Positions 3,327-30,482 of a DNA stretch of 64,000 nucleotides are shown here, in pieces (position 1 is the first letter of the stretch; every line of letters starts with the position of its first letter). Under the pieces are notes generated by a model, which did not search any database, was not told where the DNA came from, and worked only from the letters and a program-made list of their open reading frames with translations. Position numbers and translations under genes: made by a program. Source of the DNA: Selaginella moellendorffii (lineage: Eukaryota; Plantae; Lycopodiophyta); contig NW_003314290.1 in assembly GCF_000143415.4 (NCBI RefSeq), forward strand, positions 186,001 to 250,000, given 5' to 3'.

Positions 3327-6300
3327 TCAAATAGGTAATGCCACCCATACTTGGATTGAGAGCATCGACCATCCGATCTTCTAAGGGAGTTAGAGTTGGC
3401 TCTTGAACACTTCACTAAGTTATCTTATTTGTCCATCTGTGTTCACTTTAGCCTTAGACTCCTTAATAGTTATATCATCACCCACTATGTAGGTATAGCC
3501 TTTCTTGGTCATATTGGCCTTTCTTGGCTAAATTGGTTCCACTGGAGTCCTCCCTTTACTATCCTTTTAGAGCTCACTAAACCCCCAAGGGTCTGGTGTA
3601 AGTGACCAAATTTTCTATTTTACTTTAGTCACTTAACCACACTTCTGACTATTTGGAAGAGTCTTATTTACAATTTCCATAAGTCCTTTTTTGAACTTGG
3701 GGCTTGTTAGCCCCAAGAATGGCATCTATACCACTCAACTTTTGCACTTGGTCCAAGTGCTCCATGTGTCCGATCCCATGATCGATACCTAAAGATACCA
3801 CCGACATCTCAACCTGTTACACTAAAGTCATGCCCATACACCTTTGCCACACTAGTGGTCTAACACTACCTACATCATAGTCCTGTCTCTCAAAGACTAG
3901 GCCATCCATCAATGAGTAGTCATTCCAGATCCATTCCTTCACATCTTTAGGATGCTCGGAGAACAACCTTCCCCAATATCCCTTTTTCAGTCTTCACCAA
4001 ATCCCTTTTTGTCCATGGCCGTGTTTGCCAACACTAGCATTGGGTCAAGGCCCACTAGCCCAACCACTAAGTCCTACTATCCTTTAGGACTCTTTCATCA
4101 TGTGACCATATCCTTGGTCACTACACCAAAGGATTGCCCCTCTTCCTTTCCACAGTCTAGGACTTTGGGGCAATATTTTAGAATACTGTGGCCTTACACA
4201 AGCCTCATAGGTACTCTCCCCACCTTCTGCCTTTGGGTGCTCTAACTATAGGGCTAGAATAATGTTCTATTGAGCCATGTTAGGTATCCAAGTAGGTAGT
4301 GCCACCCATGCTTGTGGACTGAGAGCATCGACCATTCAATCTCCCGAGGGAACTAGAGCCGGCTCTTGAATATTTCACCAAGCTACCCTGCTTGTCAGTC
4401 TATATTCACTCTAGCCTTGGACTCTTTAGTGGATATATCATCACCTAGCACATGGGCATAGCCTTCTTGGGTCACACTAGCCTTTCCTGGCCAAATTAAC
4501 TCCACTAGGTTCCATGCCACTCAACCTTTGCACTTGGTCAAAGTGCTCCACGTGTCCAATCCCATGATCAACACCTAAAGGTACCACTAACATATTATCC
4601 CATTACGCTTAGGCCATGCCCATGCACCTTTGCCATATTGGTGGTCCAACACTACCTGCATCACAATCCCGTCTCTCAAATACTAAGCCATCCGTCCATG
4701 AGTGGTCATCCCAGATCCATTCCTTAGCATCCTTAGGATGCCCGCAGACATAAGGAACAGCCTTCCCCAATATCCCTTTTTCAATCCCCACTAAATCCCT
4801 TTTTGTCCATAGCTGTGTTTGCCAACATTGCCATTGGGTCAAGGCTCACTAGCCTAACCACTAAGTCCCACTATCCTTTTGCACTCCCTCACCATGTGAT
4901 TGTATCCTTGGTCACTACACCAAAGGACTGCCCTTCTTCCTTTCCACAGACTAGGGTTTTGGGACAACATTTCGGAACACCATGACCCTACGCAAGCCTC
5001 ATGTGAGACACAAAATCCTTAGGCCCCAAAGTAGAGCCGGAAAGGGTGCCACGTGGTAGTGGCTGAAGCAAGAGCCAAACGAGCGTAACACGTTTGGACT
5101 AAAAGCTCCGACTTGAAAAGTCAAGAGCAGGAGTGGAACTCCCAACGAAGTGCTCGAGGAACGAGCACGAAGCGAGCAAAAAGCGAGGCTCCAAAAAGGG
5201 ACCCAAAAGGACCAACACATGACACGTGGAAGTGTCCGAGATGGACTCGAGTTGGAGTCCGAAGTGGAGTCCGAGATGGACCCGAGTTGGAGTCCGAAGT
5301 GGAGTCCGAGATGGACCCGAGTTGGAGTCCGAAGTGGAGTCCGAGATGGACCCGAGATGGAGTCTGAGATGGAGTCCGAGATGGAGTCCGAGATGGACCC
5401 GAAATGGAGTCCGAGATGGAGTCCGAGATGGAGTCCGAAGTCGAGACTGAGACCGGGACCGAGACTGAGACCGAGACCGAGACCGGGACCGAGATCGGGA
5501 CCGAGAACGAGACCGAGGCCGAGGCCGAGACCGAGGCCGAGGCCGAGACCGAGCCCGAGCCTGAGTCCGAGCCCGAGTCCGAGTCCGAGTCCGAGTCTGA
5601 GTCCGAGTTCGAGTCTGAGAGGGTGAAAGCCCAAAGCGTTCGTCTCCCAGACCCTGGGGGGTTTGGTGAGCTCCAAAAGTATAGTAGGGGGAGGACTGCA
5701 GTGGAGCCAGTTTGGCCAGGAAAGGCCAGTCTGGCCCAGGAAGGCCGGACCCAGTGTTGGGTGATGAGCTGCCCACTGGGAAGTCCAAGACTAGAGTGAA
5801 CACAGACCGACAAGCGGGGTAGCTTGGTGAAGTGTTCAAGAGCCGGCTCTAGTTCCCCCGGGAGATCGACTGGCCGATGCTCCTAGTCCAAGTGTGGGTG
5901 GCACTACCTACTTGGATACCTGGTGTGGCTCAATGGAACCCGCTCTAAGCCCATGGCTAGAGCACCCAAGGGCAGAAGGCGAGGAGAGTACCCAGGTGGC
6001 TCGCGTAAGGCCACGGTGTTCCGAAATGTTGTCCCAAAGGCCCAGACTGTGGAAAGGAAGAGGAGCAGTCCTCTGGGGTAGTGACCAAGGACACAGTCAT
6101 GTGGTGAGGAAGTCCCAGAGGACCGTGGGACTTAGTGGTCGGGCCTGTGGGTCTCGATCCAGTGGCAGTGTTGGCAAACACGGCCAGGGGCAGGAAGGGA
6201 CTTAGTGGGGACTGACAGAGGGATATTGGGGAAGGCTATTCCCCTTGTCGGTGGGCATCCTAAGGATGCTAAGGAGTGGATCTGAGATGACCACTCACGG

Positions 6301-6616
6301 ATGGTTTGCCTAGTCTTGGAGAGCCAAGACGGTGATGCAAGTGGTATTGGACTACCAGTGTGGCAAAGGTGATTGGGCATGGCCTTAGCGTGACGGGCTG
6401 CTATGTCGGTGGTACCTTTGAGTGTCGGTCATGGGATCGGACATGTGGAGCACTTGGACCAAGTGCAAATGTTGAGTGGCATGGATGCCATTCTCGGGGC
6501 TAGCAAGTCCTAAGTCTTGGATTGGACTTATGGAGGTTGTGAATGAGACTCCTCCAAGTGGTCAGAGGTGTGGTTAAGTGACTAAAGTAGAATGGAAAAT
6601 TTAGTCGCTTACAACT

Positions 6617-6628
6617 TGGTATCGGAGC
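6617..6628 (+). promoter_or_regulatory. Primer-binding site (tRNA-iMet type) of family A
   Basis: TGGTATCGGAGC 3 nt after the LTR end; one mismatch to canonical TGGTATCAGAGC. Confidence 0.9.
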
Positions 6629-9096
6629 TGTTCCTTAATCCGACTTTTATTGGTGTTCAAGTATATCACCACTAGTGTTGGCATCGGAAGGTCCGAGGAG
6701 TGGGCCTATCCTTGAGGAGTAGCAAGTCGGGAAGACATGGCTCTCCATTACAGTTCATGTGTGAATTTGTAGACGAGGTGGTGGATAGAAAAGGGCCAAT
6801 AATGGAACGACTTTGGGATCTTGGGAACAGTGCAGGGTTTTCCTCATTGAGTTGAGGATGTGATCCGGATGAGCATTTGTCTCAGCAAATTGGCTAAGGT
6901 TGTTGTGGTAAACAACTAAAGTTGGGATCACGGGAAAGATAAAGACTCCAAAACAATAAAGGAGTCACAAGATTATCCTCATATAGTTGAGGTTGGTGCT
7001 CATGAATGTGAGACCAGAGGTAATGACCGTGGGAGGTCAAATACGAAAGAGGACTCAAATCCTTGAAATGGTAGCCGGGGCTACCTTTAATAAATGTTGG
7101 AACAACCCAAGGAGTTGGGGGGTGTACTTAGAGATGAGTGGTATTCTCATCGCATGGACAAGTAGTCCTAAGGGGAAAAAGTTGCCCCCAGAGAACAAAA
7201 TCAAGTGTCGGAGTAACACTTGTGAAAATAGTCCTTTTGAGTAGGACAGGAATGCAAGAAGTGTATTCCAGTGAGCTAGTGCCTCACAAGTAGGACCTTA
7301 AAGGTCTGTGGATTAACCAAGTCCAAAACTGCTGATGACTCAAGTAGAGTCAAGGGATGGTCCTAAAAGGACTGATGGAAGCATTTGGACTGAGGTGTGT
7401 TGTATCCCACAAAGGATGGGGGGGGATCATAGGATCCAAGGATGAGAACAGAGGGTATCTCATCGATGGCAAAATGTGCCATGCTAAAGTTATGGGAAAG
7501 GTGTTTTCAGAAGAAAACAACTTTGACACAAAGTTGTGTGTGACCTTTATGGTGAAGTGCTAACGGATGGTTGGCATGAGAAAGAGCGGTGTTGGTCTTG
7601 GCAAAGACATAAACACGAAGGGGAAGTGTCATAGAGGTAGGCTCGTGGAGCCGATGGTGTAGAGACACCAAATGTGCCAAGGTGTGATACCTTGAGGCTA
7701 TGTTGGTGGGTTCATGAGAACCCTTTGCCAAAGGAATCCTAATGGAAATGGGAATGGCATAGCCTAAGTTGCAGAGCATGCAGTTGGAGTGTGGTGACCC
7801 AGATAATGATGGAGGTGTGAAAGCACCAAACAATGAGTTGTAGGACTTGACAACTATGAGGCAACTAAGCAAGAGGTGCAAAATAACTGGTTAAACGGGT
7901 AGAAGGTAGCTACCCAAGACTTCTTAATAGCATAGGGATGTCGGATACATTCTTACGGGGGATAAGTTGTTTGTGTTGCGATATAGTAAATCAATGTCAT
8001 AAAAGGAAATACTCATTGTCAAGAAAGCCATCATTGGGACACCCGAACACTTTAGAACACCAGAAGGTGGTGTTTGATGTCGCGAGGGCAATGGATAAAG
8101 CCCAAGGGACTAAGTCCCTAGCGAATGATGGATAGAAGGTGCTATCCAAATGTCCAAGGTTGTGGAGACAGGAGAGGACTGTCTACCCGAGTTGGACAAA
8201 ACCAAGAATGGAATTTTGGCAAGGTTAGTGATGGGCATGTAAAGGCCCATAAGCAACAATGTAATCCCAGTGTGTGGGATTATAAGGTGAGCATACCCGG
8301 ATTGAGGAACCACTCCTTGGGCTATTGGGTAGGTTCATCCCTAAGAATACTTGCTAAGGCATGATAGAAAGTGCAAAGCTATCCTCCTGGTCTGGAGGAG
8401 AATAACCAAAGGAAACATATGGGGCCAAAAGGCAAGTAGTATTGGGATGGAACTGAACCATAGAAATCGAAGGGCATAACCAAGGTTGGTTATGCCAGCT
8501 GGGAGTGGAGAATCAAGTGGGGGCTCGAGGGTGTTGCCGCTAGCAACCGTGATGCCATGGAGAGTCTAAAATATGGAATTGTCCATGTTAGACTATGTGG
8601 CAATTGGAAAGCTTGCAAAAAGGGAGGCCTTAGCAAGCTAAGGGACAGAGTTCCTTCAAGGTTCCCAAAGATGATTCTAGGTAGCTTAGTACCTAGAAAG
8701 GCCAAGTGTAAATGGTTCATAGAACGCGCGAAATCAGAGTAGCACAGCAGAAGCGTGGTCTTGAAGCTTGCCATGAGGCAAGGCTGTCAAGGTTAGGGAA
8801 GTAGTTCCCGAGTGTTCAAAGAGAGGGCTTTGAACGAAAGTTGATGGTTAAGGACTTCCACGCTTATGCATGAACCATGTTACGATGGCCGGATGACTTG
8901 CTAAGTGAGATTGGCAAGTTGGGGGGAACAAATACCCTAGTTGAAGGTGCTAACTTCAAAAAGGGTGGCCCATAGGGCCAATCATGGAGGAGCCTATGCA
9001 TGATTACAGATATGTCAAGTGAGAGAACTTGGCAGTGTGGGGGAACTAGGTTCCTAAGCTGTGATCTGTAACGCGCTTTAAAAATAAGTTGGTGCA

Positions 9097-9504
9097 CTGG
9101 CGTGGGGAGTCACGCCAGGCATCTTGTGTGATGCCGTCTGTAGATGCATATACGGAGGTTGGGTTCGAGTCCCGACCCTCTAGTGCTTGGGTTCGAGTCC
9201 CAAATCACTAGGGCGTGGTGATGGTTTGGAATATGAGGACACTCATATTTCGGTGGTCATGGACTCTCAGTGGGGAGACTGGTTTGGGCACACCGCCAAG
9301 CGAGGGATGCCTCGGAGTCGTGATGCACGGTTATATTGTTTAGTGTGAAAGCTCGGCATATCTAACTTGAACGCTTTGGTGCAAGTGGCACCAAGGACGT
9401 GGTGAGTGAGATGGGGACACCTAATCTCAGTTGCTATGGACCCTTGGCCGGAAGGGCTGGCTTGGGCGCACCGCCAAGTGTGGGGGATGCCCCCGGGGTC
9501 GTAG
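9097..9504 (+). other. Putative structured cis-acting RNA domain (hairpins, two GGTTCGAGTCC T-loop-like stems, two four-way-junction modules)
   Basis: Stems with compensatory changes between the two modules and against element B 45587-45830. Confidence 0.7.
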
Positions 9505-12500
9505 TTAACAAGTTAAAGGTCTGGAAGACCTAGTACCTATTGGCAAACCTGTTAAAGTGCCGAGGTGAGATCACTAGGTGATTTTGTGGCTAAATAAGGA
9601 CAAGGTCCTTGTTTGGGTTAAGGAATAAGGTTCTTAGTTCAAAGTGTTGATTTGAACTATTGATGATGGTGTGGCTTGGTCAAGGTGACCAAGTGGGAAA
9701 AGCACCTTAGGGAAATGAGCTATGTCATTGCGATGGCATAGTGTGTCCAAGGAAAGTAGTCTTTAAAAAGACCCATGAGAGGGTCACAAAGTTGGGCCGA
9801 GGATAGAGCCCACAGCAGAAGATGCTAAAAGAGACTTACTAAGGGTGAACACCCTAGTATTGGCAAAACAGAGCCTTTGCTATGGAATCAAAAGAATACC
9901 TCAAGGAAGGAGGTAGAGATTCGGTGTTACTTGGTGCAACAATCAACGGATAGGAGCAAAAGATGAGTGGCCAAGATAGGGCCGTGGAATCCCTTGGAAG
10001 GAATCCAAGTGGCAAAGTTAGGCGAGGAACACTAATGTGTTAGACGCTAACAAATTGCGGGAAAGGAAGTGTGTTTCCAAGGATGGATTCTGAATTGCTC
10101 CGATTTGGCGAAAGTGGAAGCTCCAAGGGAGGGAGCGGTAAGGTAGCCAAATGATAGGGCCATGGACAGCCCTAGCACAAAGTATGATAAATGGAACTTA
10201 GTGCCCAAGGTGGCACGAAATAGAAGAGAGGATGATGGTGCCCTCAAGTAAAGAACTTCCTAAGATGAGGAAGTGGAGTTGTACAAAAAGTGCAATGCAA
10301 GGTGTTAGAGACACCTAGGAAATTGACTTCCAGAAGGCAAAGAGTAAAAGTTCCAAGGTGCAAACGTTCCATAGATGGAAATTGAGACTACTCGAGAAGG
10401 AGTAGTGGGATTGACTTAGAGAAGGGTCTCTAAGAGGTTTAGCGAGAACTAAACCAATAAAAGGAGAGAACCATTACATGTGGTCCAATCAATCTCTAAG
10501 TTGGAGAGACTACCCTCCTTAGAGGATAGGCAAGGCATGGTGAGCCTTTGGTGTCAAACCATTGAGGCATATGCAAAAGGCATGGTGAGCCTTCAATGTC
10601 AAACCATTGACAAATATTGGCTAGGTGCCAAGGATGGAAATGGTAACACATGCGAGTGTTACTTTACAAAATGGTTTACCGTTCGATGAGGACATCGAAC
10701 TTCGTCTATGGGTGGTGGAGTTGTGAGACACAAAATCCCTAGGCCCCAAAGTGGAGCCGGAAAGGGTGCCACGTGGTAGTGGCTGAAGCGAGAGCCAAAC
10801 GAGCGTAACACGTTTGGACCAAGAGCTCCGACTTGAAAAGTCAAGAGCGGGAGTGGAACTCCCAACGAAGTGCTCGAGGAACGAGCACGAAGCGAGCAAA
10901 AAGCGAGGCTCCAAAAAGGGACCCAAAAGGACCAACACATGACACGTGGAAGTGTCCGAGATGGACTCAAGTTGGAGTCCGAAGTGGAGTCCGAGATGGA
11001 CCCGAGTTGGAGTCCGAAGTGGAGTCCGAGATGGACCCGAGTTGGAGTCCGAAGTGGAGTCCGAGATGGACCCGAGATGGAGTCCGAGATGGAGTCCGAG
11101 ATGGAGTCCGAGATGGACCCGAGATGGAGTCCAAGATGGACCCGAGATGGAGTCTGAGATGGAGTCCGAGATGGAGTCCGAAGTCGAGACCGAGACCGGG
11201 ACAGAGACCGAGACCAAGACCGAGACCGGGACCGAGATCAGGACCGAGAACGAGACCGAGGCCGAGGCCGAGACCAAGCCCGAGCCCGAGTCCGAGCCCG
11301 AGTCCGAGCCCGAGTCCGAGTCCAAGTCCGAGTCCGAGTCCGAGTTCGAGTCTGAGAGGGTGAAAGTCCAAAGCGTTCGTCTCCCAGACCCTGGGGGGTT
11401 TGGTGAGCTCCAAAAGTATAGTAGGGGGAGGACTGCAGTGGAGCCAGTTTGGCCAGGAAAGGCCAGTCTGGCCCAGGAAGGCCGGACCCAGTGTTGGGTG
11501 ATGAGCTGCCCACTGGGAAGTCCAAGACTAGAGTGAACACAGACCGACAAGCGGGGTAGCTTGGTGAAGTGTTCAAGAGCTGGCTCTAGTTCCCCCGGGA
11601 GATCGACTGGCCGATGCTCCCAGTCCAAGTGTGGGTGGCACTACCTACTTGGATACCTGGTGTGGCTCAACGGAACCCGCTCTAAGCCCATGGCTAGAGC
11701 ACCCAAGGGCAGAAGGCGAGGAGAGTACCCAGGTGTCTCGCGTAAGGCCACGGTGTTCCGAAATGTTGTCCCAAAGGCCCAGACTGTGGAAAGGAAGAGG
11801 AGCAGTCCTCTGGGGTAGTGACCAAGGACACAGTCATGTGGTGAGGAAGTCCCAGAGGACCGTGGGACTTAGTGGTCGGGCCTGTGGGTCTCGATCCAGT
11901 GGCAGTGTTGGCAAACACGGCCAGGGGCAGGAAGGGACTTAGTGGGGACTGACAGAGGGATATTGGGGAAGGCTATTCCCCTTGTCGGTGGGCATCCTAA
12001 GGATGCTAAGGAGTGGATCTGAGATGACCACTCACGGATGGTTTGCCTAGTCTTGGAGAGCCAAGATGGTGATGCAAGTGGTATTGGACTACCAGTGTGG
12101 CAAAGGTGATTGGGCATGGCCTTAGCGTAACGGGCTGCTATGTCGGTGGTACCTTTGAGTGTCGGTCATGGGATCGGACACGTGGAGCACTTGGACCAAG
12201 TGCAAATGTTGAGTGGCATGGATGCCATTCTCGGGGCTAGCAAGTCCCAAGTCCTGGATTGGACTTATGGAGGTTGTGAATGAGACTCCTCCAAGTGGTC
12301 AGAGGTGTGGTTAAGTGACTAAAGTAGAATGGAAAATTTAGTCACTTACACCTCATAAGTACTCTGCCCACCTTTTGCCTTTGGGTGCTCTAGCCATGGG
12401 CTAGAGTGAGGTTCCATTGAGCCATACTAGGTATCTAAATAAGTAGTGCCACCCATGTTTGGATTAGGAGCATCAACCATTCGATCTCCCCAGGGAACTA

Positions 12501-15416: not shown

Positions 15417-17143
15417 AACTTTTGGGGCTCTAGGATTTGTGTCTCACATCTGGGAGATGATCACTTTGGGCTTTCACCCTCGAACTCGGACTCAAACTGG
15501 GACTTGGTCTTTACCCCGGTCTTAGTCTTGGTCTCGGTCTCGGTCTCGCTCCTTGTCTCGATCCCAGTCTCAATCCCCATCTCAGACTCCTTCTCAAACT
15601 CTATTTCGGATTCCTCCTCAAACTCCATCTTGGACTCTTTCTTGAACTCCTTCTCATACTTCATCTCGGACTCTTTTTCAGAATCCATCTCAGACTCCAT
15701 CTCGGACTCCTCCTTAAACTCCTTCTTGAACTCCATCTCAAACTCCTTGGAATCCTTCTTGGACTCTATCTTGGACACTTGCTATATGTCACGACACTTG
15801 TTATGTGTCAGTCTTTCTTGTGTCCCATTTTAGAGACTCATTCATCAATTGTTTTATACTCATTCCTCAAACACTTTACTCAAAGTTCCACTCCCGCTTT
15901 TGACTTTCTGAGTTAGAGGTTTTTGATCCAAACATGTTATGTTTGTGTAAGGAACCAACTCACCGAGGTGTTGTAGGCCAAAGGACCCCCGAAAGCATGA
16001 CCAAAATGATAAAGAGTTCATCGGATGGGACCAAGTCGAAGATCGAGTCCAAGACCGACTCTGAGACCGAGTTCGAGATAGAGTCCAGAATCGAGTCCGA
16101 GGCCGACTCGGAGACCGAGTTCGAGACCGAGTTCGAGACGGAGTCCGAGATCCAAAATCAGGTCCGAGACCGAGTCCGAGGTCGAGTCCGAGATCGGGTC
16201 CGAGATCGAGTCCGAGATCGAGTCCGAGATCGAGTCCGAGACCGAATCCAAAGTCGGATCTGAGATCGAGTCCGAGATTGAGCCAGAGATTGAGTCCTAA
16301 TACTAATACGGGTCAAGGGGTGAAAGCCCAAAGTGTGTGTCTCCTGGGGGGGGGAGGGGGGCTGTAGGGGGTTCCAAAAGTATAGTAGGGATAGTGAGGT
16401 CTAGGAACCAGTTTTGAGGGAACTCTCTAGTGGGGCTTCCAAACTGACTTGAGGTTGGGACTGGGACCGAGGGGCCTTGGGTGGGAGTGAGCAGGGACTT
16501 GGTTGGTGCCAGAGGGGCCATCCAAGGAAGTGCTCAAGAGTAGCTCCCACTCCCGAAAGGAAACCGACTGTGGTGCTCCCGGCTCATGTGGAGTGGTGCC
16601 CCACTTGAGTACCATGTGGCTCATTGGTCCTTGCCCTTCCCAGGGGCTTGGGCCTTCCTTCGGGATGGAAGTGGGGGGGTAGAGGTACCCATACTGGGCC
16701 GTTAGAACACGTTGTTTCGCCCCGATGTCCCGAAGCAAGTGTTGCACCCAAGACTTGGGATTTAGAGGGTCCCATGATCAAGTCTTGTGGTACCAAGGGA
16801 TGTTAGGAACCTGGAAGCTTGGTGTGCTTGGCTGCTTGTGCTTGCGGGGAGTGTAGCCGAACCTTTAGTCCAGTCTAACCCGGGGAGGGGGATTGGGAGA
16901 GATTTGGGGATCCGTGGATGGATGGCTGACACTCCGTTGCTCGTGCAGTGAGTAGCTGAAACCAAGTAGGAGCTGGTACCATAGGCGGGAACCTTGGCGA
17001 GGGAACTTAGCAAAAGCCAAGGCAGTGTTGGACGGATAGACGAGGTAAGCTGGCAAATTGAAAAGGAAAAATTTGTGGTTTACAATTTGGTATCAGAGCC
17101 TTTTCCTCAGTTATAGCGAAGGATAGAGGCGGATTGCTGGGAG

Positions 17144-18337
17144 ATGGCAAAGGCGGGGCATAAACAAACCAAGTCGGAGACGGAACCTCCGCCAGAGCTG
17201 GAGCCTCCGGTCGAACAAGAGGCTATGGATGAGGAATCCTTGCATGAGGATGACTCCAGTGAGGAAACTTCCAAGCAGGAGTCTGGGGGTGAGGTTCGGT
17301 CGTCCAAGGCTCGACTGGATGTTCTAGAAGGATAGTTGGCACAGACCAATGCCCTGCTAGAGACTCTCGTACGCAAACTAAAGTGTGACGAGAAGCGAAA
17401 GAAAAAATGAAAGACTGCGGATGCTGGCAGCGCAGAAGATGCGGACCCTTCGGTAGGAACTGAGGCAGAACCAAATAAGGTCGAACAGACCGAAGTAGAA
17501 TCAGTCCCTCAGGCAGTTCCCAAGTACAAACCAAAGCCCCTACCGGTTTTCAAGGGAGTGAATGACTATAAAGTGGTGGAGGATTGGTTTTACGATATGG
17601 AGGACTACTTTCGAGTGTTGCGATTACCGAGCTCGAAGAAGGTCCCATGTGCAAAACCATACTTGGCAGATAATGCCAAGTCATGGTGGAGAACAACGGA
17701 GGCCAATGAAGGACCGGTGGCCACTTGGGACATGATGAAGGCGAGGATCCGTGCAACATACATTCCTCCGAATGCCACTCTGCATCTAAGGGATGAGCTG
17801 AGTAGGCTGAAGCAGACTGGAACCATCCAGGAGTATGTGAATGGGTTCATAGCAAAGAGGATACTTGTCACGGACATGGGGGATATGGATGCATTCCATG
17901 CCTTCATATCAAGTTTGCAAACCTGGGCTCGCAGTGAAGTGATGCACTGGAACCCGACCAACTACAAGGAAGCGTTGGATGCGGCTATCAAGGTGCATTT
18001 CAACGATAACCTGCGAAACGGGAACGCGACGGGGTCGGGATCCACATTTAGCAAAGGGGCCAAACCAAGAGGAACATATAGCAAAGGGAAATTCAAGAAG
18101 AGTTTCTCTAAGAATGAGTCCTCGGGATTCCAGAAAGGCAAATCCGGTGGCCAGCAAGCGAGTACGTGGGGGAGTCAAGCGAAAAGAGACAAACCCACGG
18201 ATAAGAAGGTCAAGTCGTTTAGCAGCGTGGGAAACAACGTATGCTACAACTGCGGTGAAGCGGGACACTTTTCGAGGGAATGTCCCTACCCGAAGAAGGT
18301 CAGAGCCAATATGGCCATTAAGTCGGGTGAAGTCTAA
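17144..18337 (+). pseudogene. gag: gag of element B
   Basis: Retrotransposon gag motifs (LKQTGTIQEY), CCHC knuckle CYNCGEAGHFSREC; in-frame stops in the 5' part. Confidence 0.9.
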
Positions 18338-21178
18338 ACTGAGGTATGTGATCTAGTCCCTAGCTCAAAGTTACTCATTACACGAGCAACTTTGGTAGAG
18401 AGTCGTTCGCGACATCTACTAGCCCTCCGAGGGAAGCTCGGGGGTAGCTTTGTTAAAATCCTTATTGACACGGGTGCTTCAGATAATTTTGTGGCTGCAG
18501 ACATAGTCCGGCAAGCCGGACTAATGGTGCAGCGGCTGGGCAAACCAAGGACTATAGAGTTTGTTCAAGGTAGCCAAAGCACCGATGAGGTACTTCAACA
18601 AGCGAGAGTCAAAGTAGAGACTTGGAAAGTAGACATGGACTTCACCGTGTTGGACATGGCGGGATTTGACGTGATCTTCGGGATGGACTGGTTCAATCGG
18701 TTCGTGATAGCCCTACATGGACAAAGTAGGAACCTTGTGGTACTGGCGAATGCCCAAGGAAGAAGATCCAGGGTGGAGGCCCAAGATCTAAAAGTAGGGC
18801 AATGCAAGGCCAAAGATTCGTGCCTAAATCTAGTGTCCACAAGAGGACAACTCACTAAAGGGACCAAGGCTGCATTTTTGTGCTTACTCTCGGTCAGAAG
18901 TGACAAAAAGACTGGAACGAAAGTACCTTTAGTGATCCAGCGGGTGTTGGATCAATTCCAAGATACCATGCCGGAGGAGCTATCGGCGGGGTTGCCCCCC
19001 GCACGACTGATAGAACATAAGATTGAGCTGGTCGAGGGTGCTGAGGTGGTGGTTCGCCCCCCCTATCGTTTGAACGAAAAAGAACTCGCGGAGCTCAAGT
19101 GCCAACTAGAGGAGTTGGTGGACAAAGGGTATGTTAGGTTGAGCAAGTTGCCGTATGGGGCGCCGGTGCTATTTGTGAAAAAGAAAGATGGATCTATGCG
19201 CATGTGCATAGACTACCGGTTGCTCAATAAGTATACCAAGAAGAACAAGTACCCTTTGCCAAGGATTGAGGACCTGTTCGATAGGTTGGGAAAGGCAAAA
19301 TACTTCTCGAGGATTGACCTAAAGTTAGGATACTACCAGATCAGGGTAGCAGAGGAAGATGTCGAGTTTCTAGTGATGCCCTTCGGGCTATGCAATGCAC
19401 TGGCAACGTTTTCAGCGTTGATGAACCATATCTTTGTACCCTATCTGGATCACTTTGTGGTCGTGTATATTGACAACATCCTGATCTATAGCAAAACGCT
19501 AGAGGAGCATGCCGAACACTTGACGAAGGTGTTTGAGAAACTAAGGGAACACCAGCTATATGCTAAAGAGAGCAAATGTGACTTTGCTCAACAAGAGGTA
19601 AAGTTTCTCGGGCATGTGGTGGGCAAGGACGGGCTCAAGGTGGACCCTGAGAAGGTCCAAGCGATCCAAGATTGGGAGCGACCATCGAATGTACACGAGT
19701 TAAGGGCATTCTTGGGGCTATGCAACTACTATCAAAAGTTTATCAGACACTATTCGAGAGTAGTGTAAGCAACCAAAGGGAACAACTCGAGAGACGATCC
19801 ATAAGGGTTCAAATATAGAGGGAAAGGGCCCATGAACAAGAGTGCACCCCCTTTTCCAATCGGTCAAGGGTCTTGGGATATTTGGGGTTAAGCGTCCTTG
19901 GGGTTGAATAGTACTGGGCTGGGTGACCTCCCGGGAAGTCCAAACTTAGGAGCTTACAAGTAGCCCTACCCTTAACGGACCAAACGGGAAAAGGGAAGAT
20001 GGTATGGACAGCAGAATGCGAGGTGGCATTCGTCCACCTCAAGAGGAAGTTGAGGAAGGCTCCCGTGTTGGCATTACCAGACTTTGGTAAGGACTTTGAG
20101 GTAAAAACAGATGCTTTAGACTTTGCATTGGGCGCAGTTTTGAAGCAAGACAACCATCCAATAGCGTTCTTCTCGAAGAAGTTGGATAAGGCCTAATGGA
20201 AGTGGCCTGCCCATGAGAAGGAATTGTTTGCGGTGGTCAAGGCACTCAAGGAGTGGCGACACTACCTTGGGAGACACTTCAAGGTTTACACGGACAATGT
20301 GGCAATGAAACACTTCTTGTCACAGCCCAACCTGAGGGGAAAACAAGGTCAGTGGGCCAATGCTTTGGCCGAGTTTGATTGCGAGATTTTGTACAAGCCT
20401 GGGAAGAGCAACATCGTGGCAGATGCGCTAAGTTGAAAAGCGAGCTTGAAGTTGGCGATATCCAGCGCGACAGCAACCTTTTGGGATGATGTGCGAACCA
20501 CATATGAGAACGACAGTTTAGCACAAGAAGTGTTGCTGAGGAATCTAGAGGCACGAGAAGCTTACTAGAGAGGTGAGCTGCCAACGGAAGAGAAAACAGG
20601 CTATGCGGAACGCAACGGACTCATATATTACAAGCAAACGAGGGTGTATGTTCCAGAAGGGGAACTAAAGAAGGTAGCCTTAGAAGAGTATCATGACGGA
20701 CCTCTTGTGGGACATGGCGGAGTGCCCAAGACAATGGGCTTACTCAAGAGGAAGTACCATTGGCCAGATATGGCTAAGGACGTCCAAGACTATGTAAAGA
20801 CATGTCCAACATGTCAGCAGGTCAAAGCCGTGACTAAGGCTAGTGGGGGCTTGTTAGAAAGCATCCCAATTCCAGATCGCCCGTGGAAATGTCTTACGAT
20901 GGACTTCATCACGGGACTCCCTCCAAGCGAGGGGTTCGATGCGATATTCGTGGTGGTGGATCGATTTTCAAAGATGGCACATTTCATACCCACCACAACG
21001 GAAGTGGATGCGGAAGGTGTGGCGAAGCTGTTCTTCGAACAAGTGGTTCGAGTGCGGGGAAGGCCAGAAGAGATTATCTCAGATCGAGATAAGATCTTCA
21101 CCAGTAGGTTCTGGAGGACCCTCCTAGAACAGTATCGCACCAAGCTGAAATTCAGCATAGCCTATCACCCATAGACAG
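18338..21178 (+). pseudogene. pol: pol of element B: protease, RT, RNase H, integrase N-terminal part
   Basis: [25 protein letters not shown] (YxDD degenerate), TDALDFALGAVL, H-H-C-C zinc finger, MDFITGLP; stops, a deletion in RT and a Cassandra insertion. Confidence 0.95.
19764..19958 (+). mobile_element. Cassandra TRIM solo LTR (5S-rRNA-derived segment) inserted in pol of element B
   Basis: TGT...ACA, TSD AGTAG; GTTAAGCGTCCTTGGG...TAGTACTGGGCTGGGTGACCTCCCGGGAAGTCC resembles the 5S rRNA A/C-box region. Confidence 0.9.
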
Positions 21179-21225
21179 GTAATGGGTATTAAGTCAAGAT
21201 TGATGGCACTAACACATCTTGATAG
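21179..21225 (+). other. 47-nt spliceosomal-type intron in the integrase of B (acceptor duplicated as TSD at 36709-36712)
   Basis: GTAATG...CTAAC...TAG; removal restores YHP(*)T-D-GKTERVNRQLEDYLRCY. Confidence 0.85.
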
Positions 21226-21885
21226 ATGCTCTATTTCGTTAAAGTGGGATTTATTCAGTAAAATGGGACTAGGTACAAATTTTCAAGTATTTGAAAATGA
21301 CGTGAAATTATATGTTTTTTGTCCAGGGGCTAGACATATCTGGGGCATGGTGACTAGTGCGGTGACCTTATGTCCAGACTGAGTCCATCTAGTTGTATAA
21401 TAAATCTCATTATCAAGGTGAACAAGCCGAATCTGAAGCTAAAGAAGAGCGATGGCATGCGCGCACACACTATTTGTTTGTTCATTGAGCGTGTGGTGAG
21501 CTTTCCAAGATGAACATCATTCCTATTAGCCAGACATATAACTTAATGGTGAGAACATTTAGATATTATTCAATGTTATCTTTTTCTAACGAATCTAATT
21601 GTGAAGATGTAGCAAGAGGCATTACTAGTCTGGAGAAGTCATTTAACTCATTTGACCCTTAGTGTATTTTCATGAAACTAAATAACATTCATATTATTAA
21701 GGAATTTCTCTAGTACCTTTTTTTTACGACATAGAGGCTTGCATTTCTTTCAAAGGTGATTTAGTAAAAGGCCTGAGGGCACATGCCATTCTATTTCTTA
21801 GACCGGTATTAAGATATACTAGTGCAAAGGGAAAAAGGTATTTGGTGATCAAGTAAATGGCATGAGGGCACACGCCATTATAAGC

Positions 21886-22143
21886 CTAAGCGCTAGTGGA
21901 CACCTCCTTTTTGGTACTCTCAGCGGTACTATCATCCTTCTCCGGGTCAGTTGTTTTGCTTTGGATTGTTGTCTCTGATGTTACTGGGGCGTTCTCGATA
22001 GTTGTTAATGTTGCCGTTTGTTCAGAAAAATGATCACCTGGAGTATAGTACGGGGAGTTTGGAAGACTTATATATTCTACATCTTCACCTATCTCCTTCT
22101 CCGTCTCCTTTTCTGCCTCACTTACAGATTTTGTGCTTGCCAT
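21886..22143 (-). CDS. Possible small acidic/Thr-rich ORF (~85 aa) inside the DNA transposon
   Basis: Open MASTKSVSEAEKE...EVSTSA with coding-like composition in AT-rich surroundings; no recognised domain. Confidence 0.3.
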   Translation of the reverse strand: MASTKSVSEAEKETEKEIGEDVEYISLPNSPYYTPGDHFSEQTATLTTIENAPVTSETTIQSKTTDPEKDDSTAESTKKEVSTSA

Positions 22144-22781
22144 GAGAACGCTCTTCACCCTAAAATATGGAGTTCGTTGTGTTATAAAAGGAAACCAACA
22201 CACACGCTGCCAGGGAATGATGGTACATAAAGCACGTAAGCCCACAATATGGGTTTATGTGCCATTAATATGGGCCACACGCCATATTATTAGATTTATG
22301 CACGTGTGATTGGTAAATGCATATGTCACATCATCTTTGTTTTACCTCACACACTATATCAGGCCTAATGAACCATATCACATGTGCGCACATGCTATAT
22401 ATATGGAGAAGTATTATGCAAGGATAGAAATTCAATGCATGATTGTGGAGAGCAATGGCATGAAGCCACATGCTAAATAACATTTTAGAGAAAGAATTAA
22501 AATAGAAACATGCAAACAGTACTAAGTGGACCAAGACTTAGAAGTGCACAATTGAATGAGGTATTTCTAATAAATACTTCACTCACCTCATATAGGAATG
22601 GCTACCACTCTCAAATGGCGTATCGCCTCATGCCATCACCTCGCAATTTGTTATAACAATCCGATGAATTCATATTTGGCTTGTTCACCTTGAACTTTAA
22701 GTAAGATTTGCTAGAACAACTAAGAATTTATACTTGTTATTTGTATCATCTCACCTAGGAATGGCGTAAGGCCACATGCCA

Positions 22782-23978
22782 TCACGCCTCCTCTGATTCA
22801 GATTCGGATTGTTCACCTTGAAATAAAATACATTAGAAACTTAGTAAAGGAATATTAATGAATTGTAAGCGACTAAATTTTCCATTCTACTTTAGTCACT
22901 TAACCACACCTCTGACCACTTGGAGGAGTCTCATTCACAACCTCCCCAAGTCCAATCCAGGACTTGGGACTTGCTAGCCCCGAGAATGGCATCCATGCCA
23001 CTCAACATTTGCACTTGGTCCAAGTGCTCCACGTGTCCGATCCCCTGACCGACACTCAAAGGTACCACCGACATAGCAGCCCGTTACGCTAAGGCCATGC
23101 CCAATCACCTTTGCCACACTGGTAGGCCACTACCACTTGCATCACAGTCTTGGCTCTCCAAGACTAGGCAAACCATCCGTGAGTGGTCATCTCAAATCCA
23201 CTCCTTAGCATCCTTAGGATGCCCACCGACAAGGGGAATAGCCTTCCCCAATATCCCTCTGTCAGTCCCCACTAAGTCCTTTTCTGCCCCTGGCCGTGTT
23301 TGCCAACATTGCCACTGGATCGAGACCCACAGGCCCGACCACTAAGTCCCATGGTCCTCTGGGACTTCCTCACCCCACGACTGTGTCCTTGGTCACTACC
23401 CCAGAGGACTGCGCCTCTTACTCTCCATAGTCTGGGCCTTTGGGACAACATTTCGGAACACTGTGGCCTTACGCAAGCCACCTGGGTACTCTCCTCGCCT
23501 TTTGTCTTTAGGTGCTCTAGCCATGGGCTTAGAGCGAGGTTCCGTTGAGCCACGACAGGTATCCAAGTAGGTAGTGCCACCCACACTTGGACTGGGAGCA
23601 TCGGCCAGTCGATCTCCCGGGGGAACTAGAGCCGGCTCTTGAACACTTCACCAAGCTACCCCACTTGTCGGTCTGTGTTCACTCTAGTCTTGGACTTCCC
23701 AGTGGGCAGCTCCTCACCCAACACTGGGTCCGGCCTTCCTGGGCCAAACTGGCCTTTCCTGGCCAAACTGGCTCCACCACAGTCCTCCCCCTACTATACT
23801 TTTGGAGCTCACCAAACCCCCCAGGGTCTGGGAGACGAACGCTTTGGGCTTTCACCCTCTCAGGCTCCGGACTCGGACTCGGACTCGGACTCGGACTCGG
23901 ACTCGGACTCAGATTCGGACTCGGACTCGGGCTCGGGCTCGGTCTCGGGCTCGGCCTCGGTCTCGGTCTCGGTCCCGA

Positions 23979-24010
<32 letters not shown>

Positions 24011-27000
24011 CCGGTCTCGGTCCCGGTCTCGGTCTCAACTTCGGACTCCATCTCGGACTCCATCTCGGACTCCATCTCGGACTCCATCTCGGGTCCATCT
24101 CGGGTCCATCTCGGACTCCATCTCGGACTCCATCTCGGGTCCATCTCGGACTCCATCTCGGACTCCATTTCGGGTCCATCTCGGACTCCATCTCGGACTC
24201 CATTTCGGGTCCATCTCGGGTCCACCTCGGACTCCATCTCGGACTCCATCTCGGACTCCATCTCGGGTCCATCTCGGACTCCACTTCGGACTCCAACTTG
24301 GGTCCATCTCGGGTCCACCTCGGACTCCACTTCGGACTCCAACTCGGGTCCATCTCGGACTCCACTTCGGACTCCAACTCGGGTCCATCTCGGACTCCAC
24401 TTCGGACTCCAACTCGAGTCCATCTCGGACACTCCCACGTGTCATGTGTTGGTCCTTTTGGGTCCCTTTTTGGAGCCTCGCCTTTTGCTCGCTTCGTGCT
24501 CGTTCCTCGAGCACTTCGTTGAGAGTTCCACTCCCGCTCTTGACTTTTCAAGTCGGAGCTTTTGGTCCAAACGTGTTACGCTTGTTTGGCTCTCGCTTCG
24601 GCCACTACCATGTGGCGCCCTTCTGGCTCCACTTTGGGGCCTAGGGATTTTGTGTCTCACATGAATCTCACCTTGAACCCGGGTTATGAATGCTCTTGCT
24701 GCATCTCTTGCATGGTCTGGCAAGGTGATGGTGGCACTCTGCTTCCGCATCCAACCATGCACAACATTATCCACCGATATGCTCATGCTGGGATCCCTTG
24801 GATTCAGCACCCATCTCTTTTCTAGGCAATCGTTCGTATATCCGGAACTTGGCTTGAACCACTCCACAGTTACATTGAAGGAGTTAGTTTCCGCGTCCTC
24901 CTCTGCATCAGTGATGCAGCGCCCCACCCATATCATTTGTTTTTTATTACTGGGTCTGACAAGCACGACCATTCCTTTGCAGACCTGTACTGGATTGAAT
25001 GCTGAATCCGGCTTCTTGTTCCTCGGCCCACAATAGTGATCCTCAACATCGTTATCTGTCATTGCATTTCCAGAGGACATTGTTCTGCTACTATCTGGTG
25101 CTCTGGGTTCTGGCCAAAAGGACTCTTCCAATTCTTCATATACAACCGGCCCATTTTGGATAGCAGATATAATCTTCTCCCAGTATTCGAGCAAAGGCTT
25201 GCACCTCTGAAAATAGGATTCTCCACCAAACACCAACCCCCTCTTCCAGAAGGCAATATGCTGTCTAATCCCGGCCACTATACTTTCCTGGTCTTTGAGT
25301 CCATCCGGGTGCATCGGCCGTGGGGAACCCTGAGGAATCATAGGTTCCTCAGTTATGGGATCTCTCTTGAAGAGTTCAATGCCGTCCACTGGCAGCCACA
25401 CTGTGTCCCATTCTCTCATCTTGTACCTCATCACTGGAGCACCGTCACACATGCTGAAATGAAACTGAAGAGGCTTAGAGTGGCCAATCAGCGTTTCGGA
25501 TCCGTCCCTGATGTAGCCTCTTACAAACCCCTTAAAGTCTGGAACCTCTGTCAGAAGTGCAGCTTCAACAGTGCCTTTGATGCAATTTTGGAATTCATCG
25601 TAGAGTTGTGGGAGGGTGAGGACATTGGATCGCCGGAGGGACTCTGCCAGGTGACTGAACATGGCATCGACATCTTCATGAGTGTGCCCAACCATGAGAA
25701 AGCCAAGTGTAACCGTTTCAAATATGCCTTTGGCAACAAGCATCGCCAAGTACGCGAAGACGTACATGTTTTTGTTCTCACTGCCAGCATTGTCTGTTTG
25801 GAGCAGAAGATGGGGTGGAAGGCCACATCGGCCGCAAGAACTTCCTTGAGATTCTGCTTCGTTTGGATGAGGCTGTGCATTCACCGGGCGACCAGCCTCG
25901 TCGGAATGGCATGAGGCCTCACGTGATAACCCTACAATCTGACGGCCAACATATTCACTAGGATGGCATGGGGCCCCACGCGATACTGCAAGCCTTTGCT
26001 CCTCCTCCAGCTGAACCCTGTATGGGGTTCGATCGACAAGGGCCTTATGCAAGGGTTGGCCGTTCAGCTCAGTCTGCGCACTTTGCAGAGACCTTAAGTG
26101 TTTTGCTAGGGACGCAATCATCATGTTTGCACCCCCGCCACCCCATAGAGGTACAAAGAAGTTCCCATAGTTCTGGGCACCATGCCCATGAGCGATTATG
26201 CCAAACAGAGACACAGGCAGCTGCATGGATGAAGAGATTGCCTTGGGGGCAGGATTGAGTCGAGGTAAGCACGTCTTTTTCTGGTCCATTTTGTCGTGGA
26301 TGATGCAGAGGTAAGAGTCAGGTCTCTCCATGGAGAGAATCCTGTTATGATAATATGCAGTCCTGCAGCTTCTCTGCTCGATGTTGTGGTCGAGCCGCCT
26401 TCTAACCAACGTCTCTCGCTCTTGAGCGCTGCAAGAATTCTTCGACAAAGCCATTTTGATAGCAGTGCACTCGTCACACTTTGAAAAGCTGGAGTACTTT
26501 CCTATACTCACATCCCTGAACCTGTTGCTCCACAATCTACTAAATCTAGATTGGCTCAGCTTCCTGTAGCCATTACTCTGGAGTTCCCGATTCACATCTT
26601 CCAATATGGCCCCCTTGGTATACATGGAAGGGAGAACTCGTTGGGTGTCTCGTGTTCCATCTTCCAAGAGGCGGGTTTTATGTGGTTGCTGCTCGCTACA
26701 TGTCTCGACAAACCTCTTGAAGATTGCCTCTCCATATACAACATGACCCCTGGTTTTGTGCGTACCGTCGTTCCCATGGACTGCCTGTTGAACCCTTTGT
26801 TCCTCGAACTCAGTTTTGATTCTGTAGAATGTGGTTCGAGGGACTCCATAAATGATTCTCCATGCCTTCATGCAGACCAAACCCCTCTGGAAGACCATGC
26901 CCCCCACCTGATGTTCTGAAGCATCAACAGATGACCGTAATGCCTCATACACAAAATTGCGAGCTGCCTTCCAGGACAATGTCTTGTATCTTGCTCTCTC

Positions 27001-27726
27001 CTCTTCAATAGCATCCCAATCAGCATGTTGACAGCACCTCCTCTTGCAACAAGCAACTGTCGAGACCATTCGAACCTCCATCGCCATTTTCTGCCTTTTC
27101 GGTTCGTTGCTCAGATCCCTTTGGCTGCGCTTTAGGAAGGTGTACTTTCTTTTCCCATGAAGAGATGTTCTGTCATCAGTTGTAGTGGTGTTTGATTGTG
27201 AATCCTTCACATTCTCAAACACTAAGTGCCTCAATTTCCACCGCACAATGCTTCCAATAGTCAGACTGTTTTCTTCTGTGTCAACAACCTCTAAAATCGC
27301 AACTCCAATATCATCCCAGCCCAATTCTTGATTAGCAACCGCATCTCTTGGATCGACAACTGTGGCTAAGTCCTCAGCTACCACCTCCCCCTTGGGGTTG
27401 TTTAGAAACACTTTTGCCTGAATCCATGTAGCACGGTTCTTAAGATCCACGGAGGGAACATGCGTCGCACTTGCGCTGTCCCCAACATCTGCTTTCTTCT
27501 GAAGATTTTTCAAGGCAACAACAACATTTACCCCGACGACCATCTCTCCTCGTTCAATAGCGACCACATTCCCATCGAAGACAGTCTCTACTGATACAGC
27601 AGCATTGCCTTCCCCAAGCCTTTGACAGTGTATAACAAAGTTCCGATCCATAGACACAAGGGTCCCTTTTGCAACTCTCTTCCCACCATTCAAAATGTAA
27701 ACCTTTTCCCCAACCCTGAAGGCCAT
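22782..27726 (-). CDS. Putative DDD/E transposase, ~1,030 aa; exons 27726-24672 and 22816-22782
   Basis: Motifs HDKMDQKK, QTDNAGSENKN, FLMVGHTHEDVDAMFS, KCDEC; two N-terminal Tnp1/En/Spm-like repeats; C-terminal BAH-like segment; GTGAG donor at 24671, AG acceptor at 22817, last exon GEQSESESEEA*. Confidence 0.85.
22864..24661 (-). mobile_element. Family-A solo LTR inserted in the transposase intron
   Basis: TGT...ACA, TSD TGAAT (22859-22863, 24662-24666). Confidence 0.95.
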
Positions 27727-28069
27727 TCTGAAAGTGCAGAAAAGAAGTTAAGACCATACAAAAAATGATTGGAGAATGGCATAAATCATAACATACCAAA
27801 CAAACTCAATAGCATGAGGCCACATGCCATTATTCAAACATGCTATTGACACCCACGTGAAATTTTGCATTCACAAAATTGGCATGAGGCCTCATGCCAT
27901 CTTGATATACACACAGCTGCAGGCAAGTAAAAACATACATGACAATACGCTAGCCATGAAATTGCAAGGGCCCAAGATGGCATGTGGCCTCATGCCATTT
28001 CTAAATGTGGTCCTAAGCCATTCCATGGTGAACATACCAGGAAGCACAAGTGCCGAATATCAAGAGGAA

Positions 28070-28225
28070 GCGGTAGCCACACCAAAGACAGTGCCGCTCG
28101 CAACACCGCAACTACTCGTAGCGCCGCTCGCAACACCGCAACTGCTCGTAGTGCCGCTCGCACAAACTGCCACTCGCATAAACTGCCGCTCGCAATGGCG
28201 CTCGCAATGCCGCAACCGCTCGTAG
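28070..28225. repeat. GC-rich ~30-bp tandem repeat (GTGCCGCTCGCAACACCGCAACTACTCGTA) upstream of the transposase
   Basis: 2-3 clear units followed by degenerate ones. Confidence 0.75.
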
Positions 28226-30289
28226 ACGCATAAACCACAGCCCACAACGCCGCTTACACAAGCAGCGCTCACTGCGCTCAGCGGAACCAAGAACACGGCG
28301 CACAAAAATGATAGACCTAGGAATGAGTTCGAGAATTCAAAAATAACACACGCTTGAACGTCACATCAAATCCTCTGACAAACCAGATCTTATGATTCCT
28401 CTGACAAATTTCAAACTGAGTAGCTTCTAGACTTTGCTGTCGGAGGTTGAACTTTGTCACATCATGTCCTTGCCTCGATCCAGCTGTGCCATGTCAGTGA
28501 TTCGAACTTTGCCATGCCATGTCAGCGATCCGCGCCAAGATTATTCGCCGTGTAAAGGAATAATTATGCTGTATGTGTACGTCCATTTATGGCAATATAA
28601 GGCCACACGCCATTCAAAGAATAATGCTCGACATAAGGCCACACGCCATTCAAAGAATAATGCTAGTCGAGCATTTTTTGGTGCATTTTTGGGTTCAAAA
28701 TTGCATGAGCCCACACGCTATAAAGTTTACCTGTACCAAAAATAGAAACAGCTTTATTTACTTGGGAATTTAAGTGGTTGAGGCATTTTTAAACTTACAA
28801 ACACATGCCCTACTTACATTCCTTTGGTTGCCTAAAATTCAAAAATATTATAAACCTTTCTTTTTGCATTTTCAATGTTTTCAATTATGGTTTTTGATTT
28901 TCGTAGGACAAGCCTAGTAATCTATTTGCATCCCGTCATGTTTATAGCTAGCTTTCGTTTGTCCCCTTCGCTAGCCTGAGATACATCTGCTCGGCATCTG
29001 CCTATTACAGCATTTGCCCAGAAAGGACATCTTTCTTCACGTAGCATTTGCCACATGTTTAGGGTTTAGGGTTTAGCAATTCAGTAGCTTGATAAACATG
29101 CAAATACAGAACTTGATGCAAAATCCTTTGATATGTCACAATGCCCCTAGGACCATAAACACATTTCAATAGAGAGGGTCCTTTCATTTCATAACTCCTT
29201 ACGTAGATCTTGGTGAAACCAGAGTTAGTGAAGTTAGTTTCTTGTGATCCCGCATCTGATTGTGATGTCCCTTTGCAGTTTCGATGGAAAGGTCAATGCA
29301 CACCAAACTGTAAAATCTTGGAGCAAAATAACAGTCGGATCTATGGCAAATGCCCCTGAAACATTGTAAGGCTTGTGTGGTCTCATGTGGTGTCCGATCG
29401 AGATGCTTCTTTGCAGGGTCATCAAGAAAGACATTGTATACCATTCTGTAAAATCTAGTTGCGATCTAACGGTTGGATCTCCAGAAAACTCAAAAAAATC
29501 TCGCGCGTGTCAGAATATCCTAGGAATATACTCCTATGTGCCCCTGAAAATGGCATGCGGCCCCACGCCATTCAAGAGATAATGCCAGATGACGCCGAGA
29601 ATTTTTTGGTGCATTTCTTGGGTTCAAAATTGCATGAGCCCACACGCTATAAAGTTTATCTTTGCCAAATAGAGAAAAGTTTATCTGTGTCATGTGAGGT
29701 AGTTACAGTCCTTTGTGCTCGGCATCTGCCTCTTGCAGCATTTGCACTGAAAGGGAATTTTTCTCCATTCAGCATTTGGCCCTGAAAATGGCATGCGACC
29801 ACACGCCATTGAAGGAATAACGCCACAGGACGCCTGGATTTTTGGGTTTAAAATGTTTAGGGTTTTTTGGGTTTTTTCAAAATATTTTGGGTTCAACGTT
29901 TTTTGGGTTTCTTTGGTTCAAAATTGCATGAGCCCACACGCTATAATATTGATTTGAGAGAAAAATAGAAACAGATAGAATTTCTTTATTTAGCTGAACA
30001 TCTGCCATTTTTGGAAATACAAGATGCTTTGGAATATCCAATCATGCATGGTATAAATATAGCGAGGGTATTAAATGATATCCCAATCATGATCTTTCTT
30101 TTGGATTTCGCGTGCATGCAGTCCGAGGAATGATGACGTTGCGGATTTCTTTTGGATTTTGCGTGCTTGCATGCGCGCGGCAATCCAGAAATTAATGGTG
30201 GCGCCCAAGTCCGAGGAATGATGACGTGGCGGGATTACCAACCGTTGTGACATTTCGCGCGTGTGAGGTTAGGTTTTGCATTTTGCTTT

Positions 30290-30482
30290 GTACTCGCGCT
30301 CGCACACTCGCGCTCTCGCTCGCATCACACTCGGGCTCCCGCTCGCATCGCGCTCCCACTCGCGATCACGCTCACTTCTCTACAGGTTTCTCGTGTGCAT
30401 CGGCGTCCACTCGTGCTTGCATCACACTCGCGCTTGCATCACACTCGCGCTCGCATCGCGCTCGTGTGCATCGGCGTCCACT
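30290..30482. repeat. CpG-rich CACTCGCGCTCGCATCA-type repeats upstream of the cargo gene
   Basis: Repeated short units; CTCGTGTGCATCGGCGTCCACT occurs twice. Confidence 0.7.

Follow-up and report, generated by a model that had tools for sequence, protein, structure and literature searches.

Introduction

The RNA transport elements RTE, MTE and CTE sit at a 3' position, and MusD and ETn form a pair of a coding and a non-coding element. To our knowledge, T-arm look-alikes are not part of the RTE, MTE or CTE. These three are cis-acting RNA structures of LTR elements that promote export (PMC12786077, PMC3856414), and the MTE contains a pseudoknot and kissing loops (PMC12786077). Plants reportedly do without TAP/NXF1, and the export of LTR-element RNA in plants is described as unstudied (PMC12786077).

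In this study, a 64-kb stretch of DNA (the window) was analyzed. A module of approximately 240 nt was found there in a non-coding LTR element (family A), whose three copies each carry it two times, and in a coding chromovirus (element B), which has a single copy in its 3' UTR. Like the IAP RTE, the MusD MTE and the MPMV CTE, the module would be a structured cis RNA on the full-length LTR transcript (PMC12786077). However, it has no sequence or Rfam match to these elements, and its likeness to them is one of position and predicted cis-structure alone. Moreover, its plant-like host is said to lack the NXF1 route (PMC12786077), so that the analogy with export elements comes without a known receptor.

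LARDs such as Sukkula resemble family A in having two LTRs, a PBS, a PPT, a non-coding interior of several kilobases and conserved predicted RNA structure (PMC7215508); unlike them, A carries a defined module that is also present in the 3' UTR of a coding chromovirus and shows pair-level covariation. The Helenus, Cassandra and Ajax TRIMs are likewise non-autonomous LTR elements with tRNA-like motifs (PMC10886601). In A, however, the motifs are in the interior and not in the LTR, A1 is 7.3 kb long and not below 1 kb, and a coding family also carries the module. RNA structure is conserved in the module, whereas PMC10886601 reports it as not conserved in Helenus-type TRIMs. The identification of A as a Helenus-type TRIM was rejected because all seven T-loop/B-box matches are interior.

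Box B of Brome mosaic virus is a T-loop mimic isolated at a stem tip in a long replicating RNA; it belongs to another replicon, whereas the module has two T-loops and a junction. In MLV, the CG of the GACG loop reportedly gives two G-C kissing pairs (Kim and Tinoco). The MLV hairpins with GACG loops have been tied to packaging and dimer stability (PMC516450; PMC7599994). An earlier reading of the window from its letters (the sequence-only reading) had loosely compared the module with these hairpins, and the module does contain a GAC-starting tetraloop hairpin in retroelement RNA. Its GACA loop, however, is without the CG of the MLV loop, occurs once per module and has a 3' or interior position. 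Kinship with the MLV hairpins was rejected, since the loop is GACA in all intact copies and does not lie in the 5' leader.

The retrotransposon nest

Self-comparison resolved the window into a nest of LTR retrotransposons, with the following elements.

5002..12350, forward strand: A1, non-coding LTR element (LTRs 5002-6613 and 10722-12350)
6617-6628, forward strand: A1 PBS, presumably of tRNA-iMet type, judged by the tRNA 3' end that we assume
10710-10721, forward strand: A1 PPT
15946..47077, forward strand: B, Ty3/gypsy chromovirus with gag, protease, RT, integrase and chromodomain, broken
36766-44691, reverse strand: A2, family A, in the integrase gene of B
about 54757-62225 (ends approximate), reverse strand: A3, family A, older copy

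Among LTR pairs and copies, C-to-T differences amounted to 4.7% in the CG, 3.9% in the CHG and 2.1% in the CHH context, a gradient that we take to be a plant-like methylation pattern. A3 was inserted into a second, more distant Ty3/gypsy remnant (52691-54943). The LTRs of both A and B start with long tracts of degenerate hexamer repeats (5234-5620; 45990-46240), which give rise to spurious long ORFs.

Family A has the traits of a LARD, namely paired LTRs, a PBS, a PPT, a target duplication, a multi-kb interior and no coding capacity. The 5-bp target duplication was found for A1 and A2, the tRNA-iMet-type PBS in A1, A2 and A3, and a common PPT region in A1 and A3. A1 is 7.3 kb in size with a non-coding interior of 4.1 kb (6617-10721). 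The three interiors gave no tblastn match to 125 proteins at an E-value of 0.01, and two interior frames gave no Pfam match. The LTRs differ at 32 of 1598 positions in A1 (2.0%) and at 10 of 1876 in A2 (0.5%), which indicates that the family moved recently. The interior of A is hairpin-rich on both strands, with z below -2 for at least one of the two strands in most 150-nt segments.

B has the domain order gag-PR-RT-RH-INT with a C-terminal chromodomain (Pfam, chromodomain E 1.7e-16; tblastn map), and its Gag contains a CCHC knuckle (Pfam). The element is interrupted twice, by a 15.5-kb insert and by A2, and its LTRs differ at 50 of 1164 positions. No target duplication was found at its flanks, so the two halves could derive from different copies. 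A tRNA PBS was not found after the 5' LTR; the nine bases that follow this LTR (17167-17175) are the exact complement of an LTR site (16496-16504), and the extended self-priming duplex ranks fourth among 225 segments, which is not outstanding. Self-priming is a mark of the Tcn1/Tf1-sushi group and in plants is known from mosses and club-mosses (PMC6317226). B likely self-primes and is likely a Tcn1/Tf1-type chromovirus. In an RT tree of 45 rows, for which 44 of 120 matches were picked by name or chromodomain content and which includes no named Tcn1 reference, B grouped with five unnamed proteins (93/84). The search with the B chromodomain found no viral relative, and that with B Gag found no homologue at an E-value of 1e-10.

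The gag frame of B seems to start within the 5' LTR and to cross the self-priming site (17144-17410). The 15.5-kb insert in the integrase gene (21211-36700) has a 22-nt inverted match near both ends and contains a 1101-aa DUF7869 frame (24442-27747, minus strand), unassigned long frames at 30912-33491 and a NIF-phosphatase-like frame at 35367-36266; it resembles a large DNA transposon. It also contains a solo LTR of family A (22861-24661).

Architecture of the module

The module has two domains, the first with three hairpins, a carrier stem and two look-alikes of the tRNA T-arm, the second with an invariant strand, a GACA hairpin and a four-way junction. Its copies and parts are as follows.

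9099-9213, forward strand: Domain I in A1 (H1, H2, H3, T1 and carrier stem P with T2)
9099..9155, forward strand: A1 hairpins H1 (9099-9116), H2 (9118-9135) and H3 (9138-9155); one two-sided change against B in H1 and one in H2
9157..9177, forward strand: T1, A1 T-arm look-alike with a 7-nt T-loop; matches the Pol III B box as well
9178..9213, forward strand: carrier stem P (8 bp), topped by T-arm look-alike T2 (9187-9203)
9214..9257, forward strand: invariant single strand CGTGGTGA and GACA-loop hairpin (9228-9251), copy Aa
9258..9322, forward strand: four-way junction, copy Aa, lowest-energy fold in Aa
9374..9396, forward strand: second P stem, without T-arm, upstream of copy Ab; 8 of 8 pairs kept, with two two-sided changes against Aa
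9398..9504, forward strand: copy Ab, with invariant strand, GACA hairpin (9407-9429) and four-way junction (9434-9504)
10685..10721, forward strand: pre-PPT hairpin and PPT of A, also in B; the hairpin also in related chromoviruses
39926..40343, reverse strand: whole module in A2, the copy inserted in the B integrase gene
45590..45718, forward strand: Domain I in the B 3' UTR (H1, H2, H3, T1 at 45652-45672, P with T2 at 45689-45705)
45719..45829, forward strand: Domain II in B, with invariant strand, GACA hairpin (45732-45755) and junction (45761-45829)
58008..58421, reverse strand: whole module in A3, with an internal inversion (58239-58307)

The sequence-only reading had described the module twice in A and once in the 3' region of B, with a GACA-loop hairpin ahead of each junction and T-loop-like hairpins upstream, and all of these features and the motifs quoted for them are indeed present. 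The unit is, however, larger than had been reported, and the copies in A2 and A3 had been missed.

In B, the module lies between the pol stop and the PPT (45888-45899), with its 3' end approximately 58 nt upstream of the latter. The distances among copies Aa, Ab and B are much the same (72-76%), which indicates that the duplication of Aa and Ab is old. Of their interiors, A and B share just the module and approximately 45 nt that precede the 3' LTR, and the LTRs share the repeat-rich U3 alone. A and B have the PPT, the pre-PPT hairpin, the module and the U3 repeats in common and differ in priming.

Each element has two T-arms with a 7-nt T-loop, and the seven exact matches to the B-box/T-loop pattern in the window, in the form that we take this pattern to have, are all interior and all within the module. 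In addition to the constant GACA loop, the module has purine loops, including GG-bearing ones at H1 and arm 1, and the closing stem of B carries one G-A mismatch. The GTGGTG of the invariant strand and the arm-2 loop, which is invariant too, have 6 bp of complementarity in each of the three lineages. A possible pseudoknot between them would, being invariant, come without covariation; the same strand can alternatively pair upstream. The tRNA mimic envisaged earlier does not extend to a full tRNA, since no cloverleaf with acceptor stem and D arm was recovered in the window, ARAGORN predicting 0 genes and Rfam giving no tRNA match at an E-value of up to 10.

Several further features were observed around the module. 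One of the six A module copies is part-inverted; this clean inversion of approximately 69 bp in A3 (58239-58307) runs across the GACA hairpin and takes in the 3' strand of P on one side and the 5' strand of the closing stem on the other. It is edged by short inverted matches and may have arisen when the template was switched at a hairpin. The linker between the A modules (9329-9360) is itself a hairpin and is complementary to the H1 3' and H2 5' strands (9107-9125), with 20-nt arms at 85% in A3; an inverted duplication or an alternative fold is possible. At 45649-45708, where depth was low, some copies seem to have a third T-arm and others a lost or repeated T-arm unit (36-nt skips). The 4-bp GATG/CATC hairpin before the PPT (10685-10696; 45863-45874) is kept from A and B to distant chromoviruses.

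Evidence for a selected RNA structure

Substitutions between copies were scored on helices that had been placed manually by someone who could see every copy, in three independent lineages and with the exclusion of arm 1, which is not alignable. Between Aa and B, 47 of 65 pairs were the same, 10 had a one-sided change and were still paired, 6 had two-sided changes and 2 were broken. The comparison of Aa with Ab over 35 pairs gave 9 two-sided, 2 one-sided paired and 0 broken, and that of Ab with B, also over 35 pairs, gave 9 two-sided, 6 one-sided paired and 1 broken. When the same substitutions were redistributed in 20000 shuffles per comparison, 8-10 broken and 2-3 two-sided pairs were expected (9.5 and 2.0 for Aa against B). 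None of the 20000 shuffles had as few broken pairs in any of the three comparisons, and as many two-sided changes were reached in 77 (Aa against B), 0 (Aa against Ab) and 1 (Ab against B). Two-sided changes occur in stem P among Aa, Ab and B; the T stems show one-sided changes only, and copy Ab has lost its T-arm. For the junction alone, 136, 1387 and 9396 of 20000 shuffles had as many two-sided changes, so that one of the three comparisons was clearly significant. In the rest of the A interior, compared among A1, A2 and A3 with low power, none of four comparisons had a two-sided excess and two had fewer broken pairs than the null.

Three checks with less bias than the hand-set helices gave the same picture. 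In an alignment made with MAFFT, 98.3% of 117 cells were paired; 2 of 500 shuffles were as high, and partners slid out of register reached 33-58%. RNAalifold found 2 two-sided changes among 44 pairs on this alignment, in which H2 is misaligned. A model built without Aa recovered Aa at 68 bits, the best match to an unrelated part of the window being 14.9 bits. Furthermore, 13 of 14 stem-site variants at a frequency of at least 10% in run X1 keep or gain a pair among the variants listed (12 of 13 with a 5-bp arm-2 register), compared with 55% of possible transitions expected to keep pairing (P about 0.003-0.005); these variants come from the best 40 of 165 and the best 40 of 65 rows, and near T1 those in the B table may stem from A copies. 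One common X1 variant breaks the outer T2 pair. Over the 165 helix positions there were 18 G-U pairs and one C-A, which indicates that the structure is read on the sense RNA strand.

The fold of the T-loop domain (Domain I) had z-scores of -4.2 in A and -4.5 in B against shuffles. Those of the junction alone were -1.6, -1.1 and -0.8, no better than shuffles, and the junction was the lowest-energy fold in one of four copies tested (Aa), with gaps of 0, 1.8, 2.9 and 6.1 kcal/mol. The junction stressed by the sequence-only reading is thus present, but the best thermodynamic support belongs to the T-loop domain. Because much of the A interior also has z below -2, fold energy alone does not mark out the module. 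Covariation is the stronger evidence, and the junction is the weaker part of the module. Taken together, the covariation beyond the shuffle null and its bias to the sense strand argue that the module is a real, selected RNA structure common to non-coding A and coding B, in agreement with what had been proposed from the letters.

Distribution and homologue searches

In run X1, 23712 contigs matched the A stretch and 4453 the B stretch, and in X8, from a second organism, 345 matched A and 103 matched B. Each family thus has a high copy number and extends beyond a single organism. RNA runs gave 2, 1 and 0 reads per 9.2 million records each, in libraries that may lose small RNAs; the expression of A and B in those libraries is very low, as would be expected of silenced elements.

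The Infernal comparison with Rfam that the sequence-only reading had suggested (4227 families) produced no family for the 64 kb at the gathering score and only chance-level matches at an E-value of up to 10. No ribozyme covariance model was matched among the 4227 families at that threshold, and the identity with a known self-cleaving ribozyme or retrozyme was rejected on this ground. Scans with the module pattern returned 0 matches in viral contigs, 0 in metagenome contigs and 0 in prokaryote genomes; looser patterns offered 4 and 2 loci as homologues, which were rejected at no more than 8.3 bits with the model. A tandem T-loop pattern occurred in viral contigs at no fewer than 120 places, with the two motifs 35-56 nt apart, and two close T-loops are therefore unspecific.

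None of 90 other chromovirus loci carried the module, both models scoring at most 11.3 bits; these loci were the best 80 of 495 metagenome matches and 10 of 10 others, fetched by integrase/chromodomain alignment. In the seven that matched best (L121-L125, L182 and L146), the pre-PPT hairpin comes immediately after the pol stop, and the PPT comes next. Since the nearest neighbors of B in the tree are not among the 90 loci, the absence holds for more distant relatives. The module therefore resembles a 3' UTR addition that is specific to one lineage. A description of it was not found in the open literature searched, and repeat databases could contain A or B.

Discussion

The module now stands as a lineage-restricted structure whose function we infer. 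Since A makes no protein, the role of the module would not be mainly translational. The module is absent from related elements, and A and B are primed in different ways, which makes a host factor a likelier partner than the Gag of one family. We tentatively propose, with somewhat less than even confidence, that the module is a cis signal on the genomic RNA that recruits host tRNA-handling or transport factors through its T-loops, for export or protection. The two-domain structure would form on the sense (genomic) RNA of A and B. The B lineage or its ancestor would have gained the module as an add-on, A would have taken it over, and both copies would have been kept in A under selection. The T-loops would then recruit host tRNA-handling or RNA-transport factors, and the full-length RNA would thereby be exported or protected.

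The tRNA elbow is built with U54-A58 and G53-C61 and by pairing with G18/G19 (PMC10424219). The T-arms of the module appear to copy this elbow-forming part, and the GG loops of H1 and arm 1 could receive them, so that the T-loops may dock on these GG-bearing purine loops. An acceptor stem and free ends for tRNA enzymes are absent in the module, which counts against the export reading. In its fullest form, the proposal describes a compact tRNA-elbow mimic with two T-loops on GG loops, locked by a pseudoknot onto the junction, feeding into host tRNA export or processing and doubled by a gene-less family; this complete version is unlikely.

The chief alternative, a packaging or dimerisation signal for the element's own Gag or nucleocapsid, doubled by A to out-compete a putative helper for particles, would account for a module kept and duplicated in a gene-less family that must be packaged in trans. 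The CCHC knuckle of B Gag, the conserved RNA structures reported for non-autonomous LARDs (PMC7215508) and the ability of HIV Gag to read the tRNA elbow (PMC10424219) are consistent with such a signal. We nevertheless regard it as rather doubtful, because related chromoviruses replicate without the module, the B copy is at the 3' end and not in the leader, priming differs between A and B, and the loops (GACA, GATG and purine loops) include no conserved self-complementary one. It is less probable still that the two T-loop motifs act on the DNA as Pol III B boxes (TFIIIC sites), giving a small RNA or a chromatin barrier, as a captured tRNA- or SINE-like unit. For this role speak the confinement of 7 of 7 exact B-box matches to the module, on the pattern as we assume it, and the distance to the next four-T run downstream, which is 380 nt in A and 650 nt in B. 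Pol III promoters do occur in Helenus and Cassandra, but in the LTRs of short TRIMs and without conserved RNA structure (PMC10886601). Moreover, the stems around and beyond the boxes covary, G-U pairs are tolerated on the sense strand only, the A-box match is poor by eye, and no read pile-up was seen in the RNA libraries, which may lose small RNAs.

Very little probability is given to a processing site or ribozyme, in which the junction would cut itself or RNase P/Z-type enzymes would cut the T-arm stems, with release of a small RNA or a circular one, as in the case of retrozymes or mascRNA. The four-way junction is near-perfect with invariant linkers, and the duplication could flank a released piece. 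The weak Rfam hint to mascRNA (16.8 bits, E 1.1) covers the T-loop alone, however, and no ribozyme family was found among the 4227 at an E-value of up to 10. Cleavage upstream of the PPT would destroy the template, and pile-ups of read starts or ends were absent from what little RNA there was. An equally slim chance remains for a neutral relic, that is, a once-structured captured sequence carried along, or hairpins picked by eye from a hairpin-rich region, as the z-scores below -2 in most of the A interior, the hand-set helices and the limit of three lineages might suggest. Against this, the two-sided changes arose after the split of A and B and after the duplication of Aa and Ab, the X1 variants keep pairs, and no other long piece of the interiors can still be aligned between A and B.

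Should the proposed role as a host-read transport signal hold, the module would be the first RNA transport element to be defined for LTR elements of plants, and should host tRNA factors read its T-loops, it would be a new case of tRNA mimicry. The nuclear exit and particle selection of plant LTR RNA are reported as unstudied (PMC12786077), although such elements fill most plant genomes. A module shared by a gene-less parasite and a coding element marks an RNA that would be worth keeping, and may provide a small, testable candidate for such a signal.
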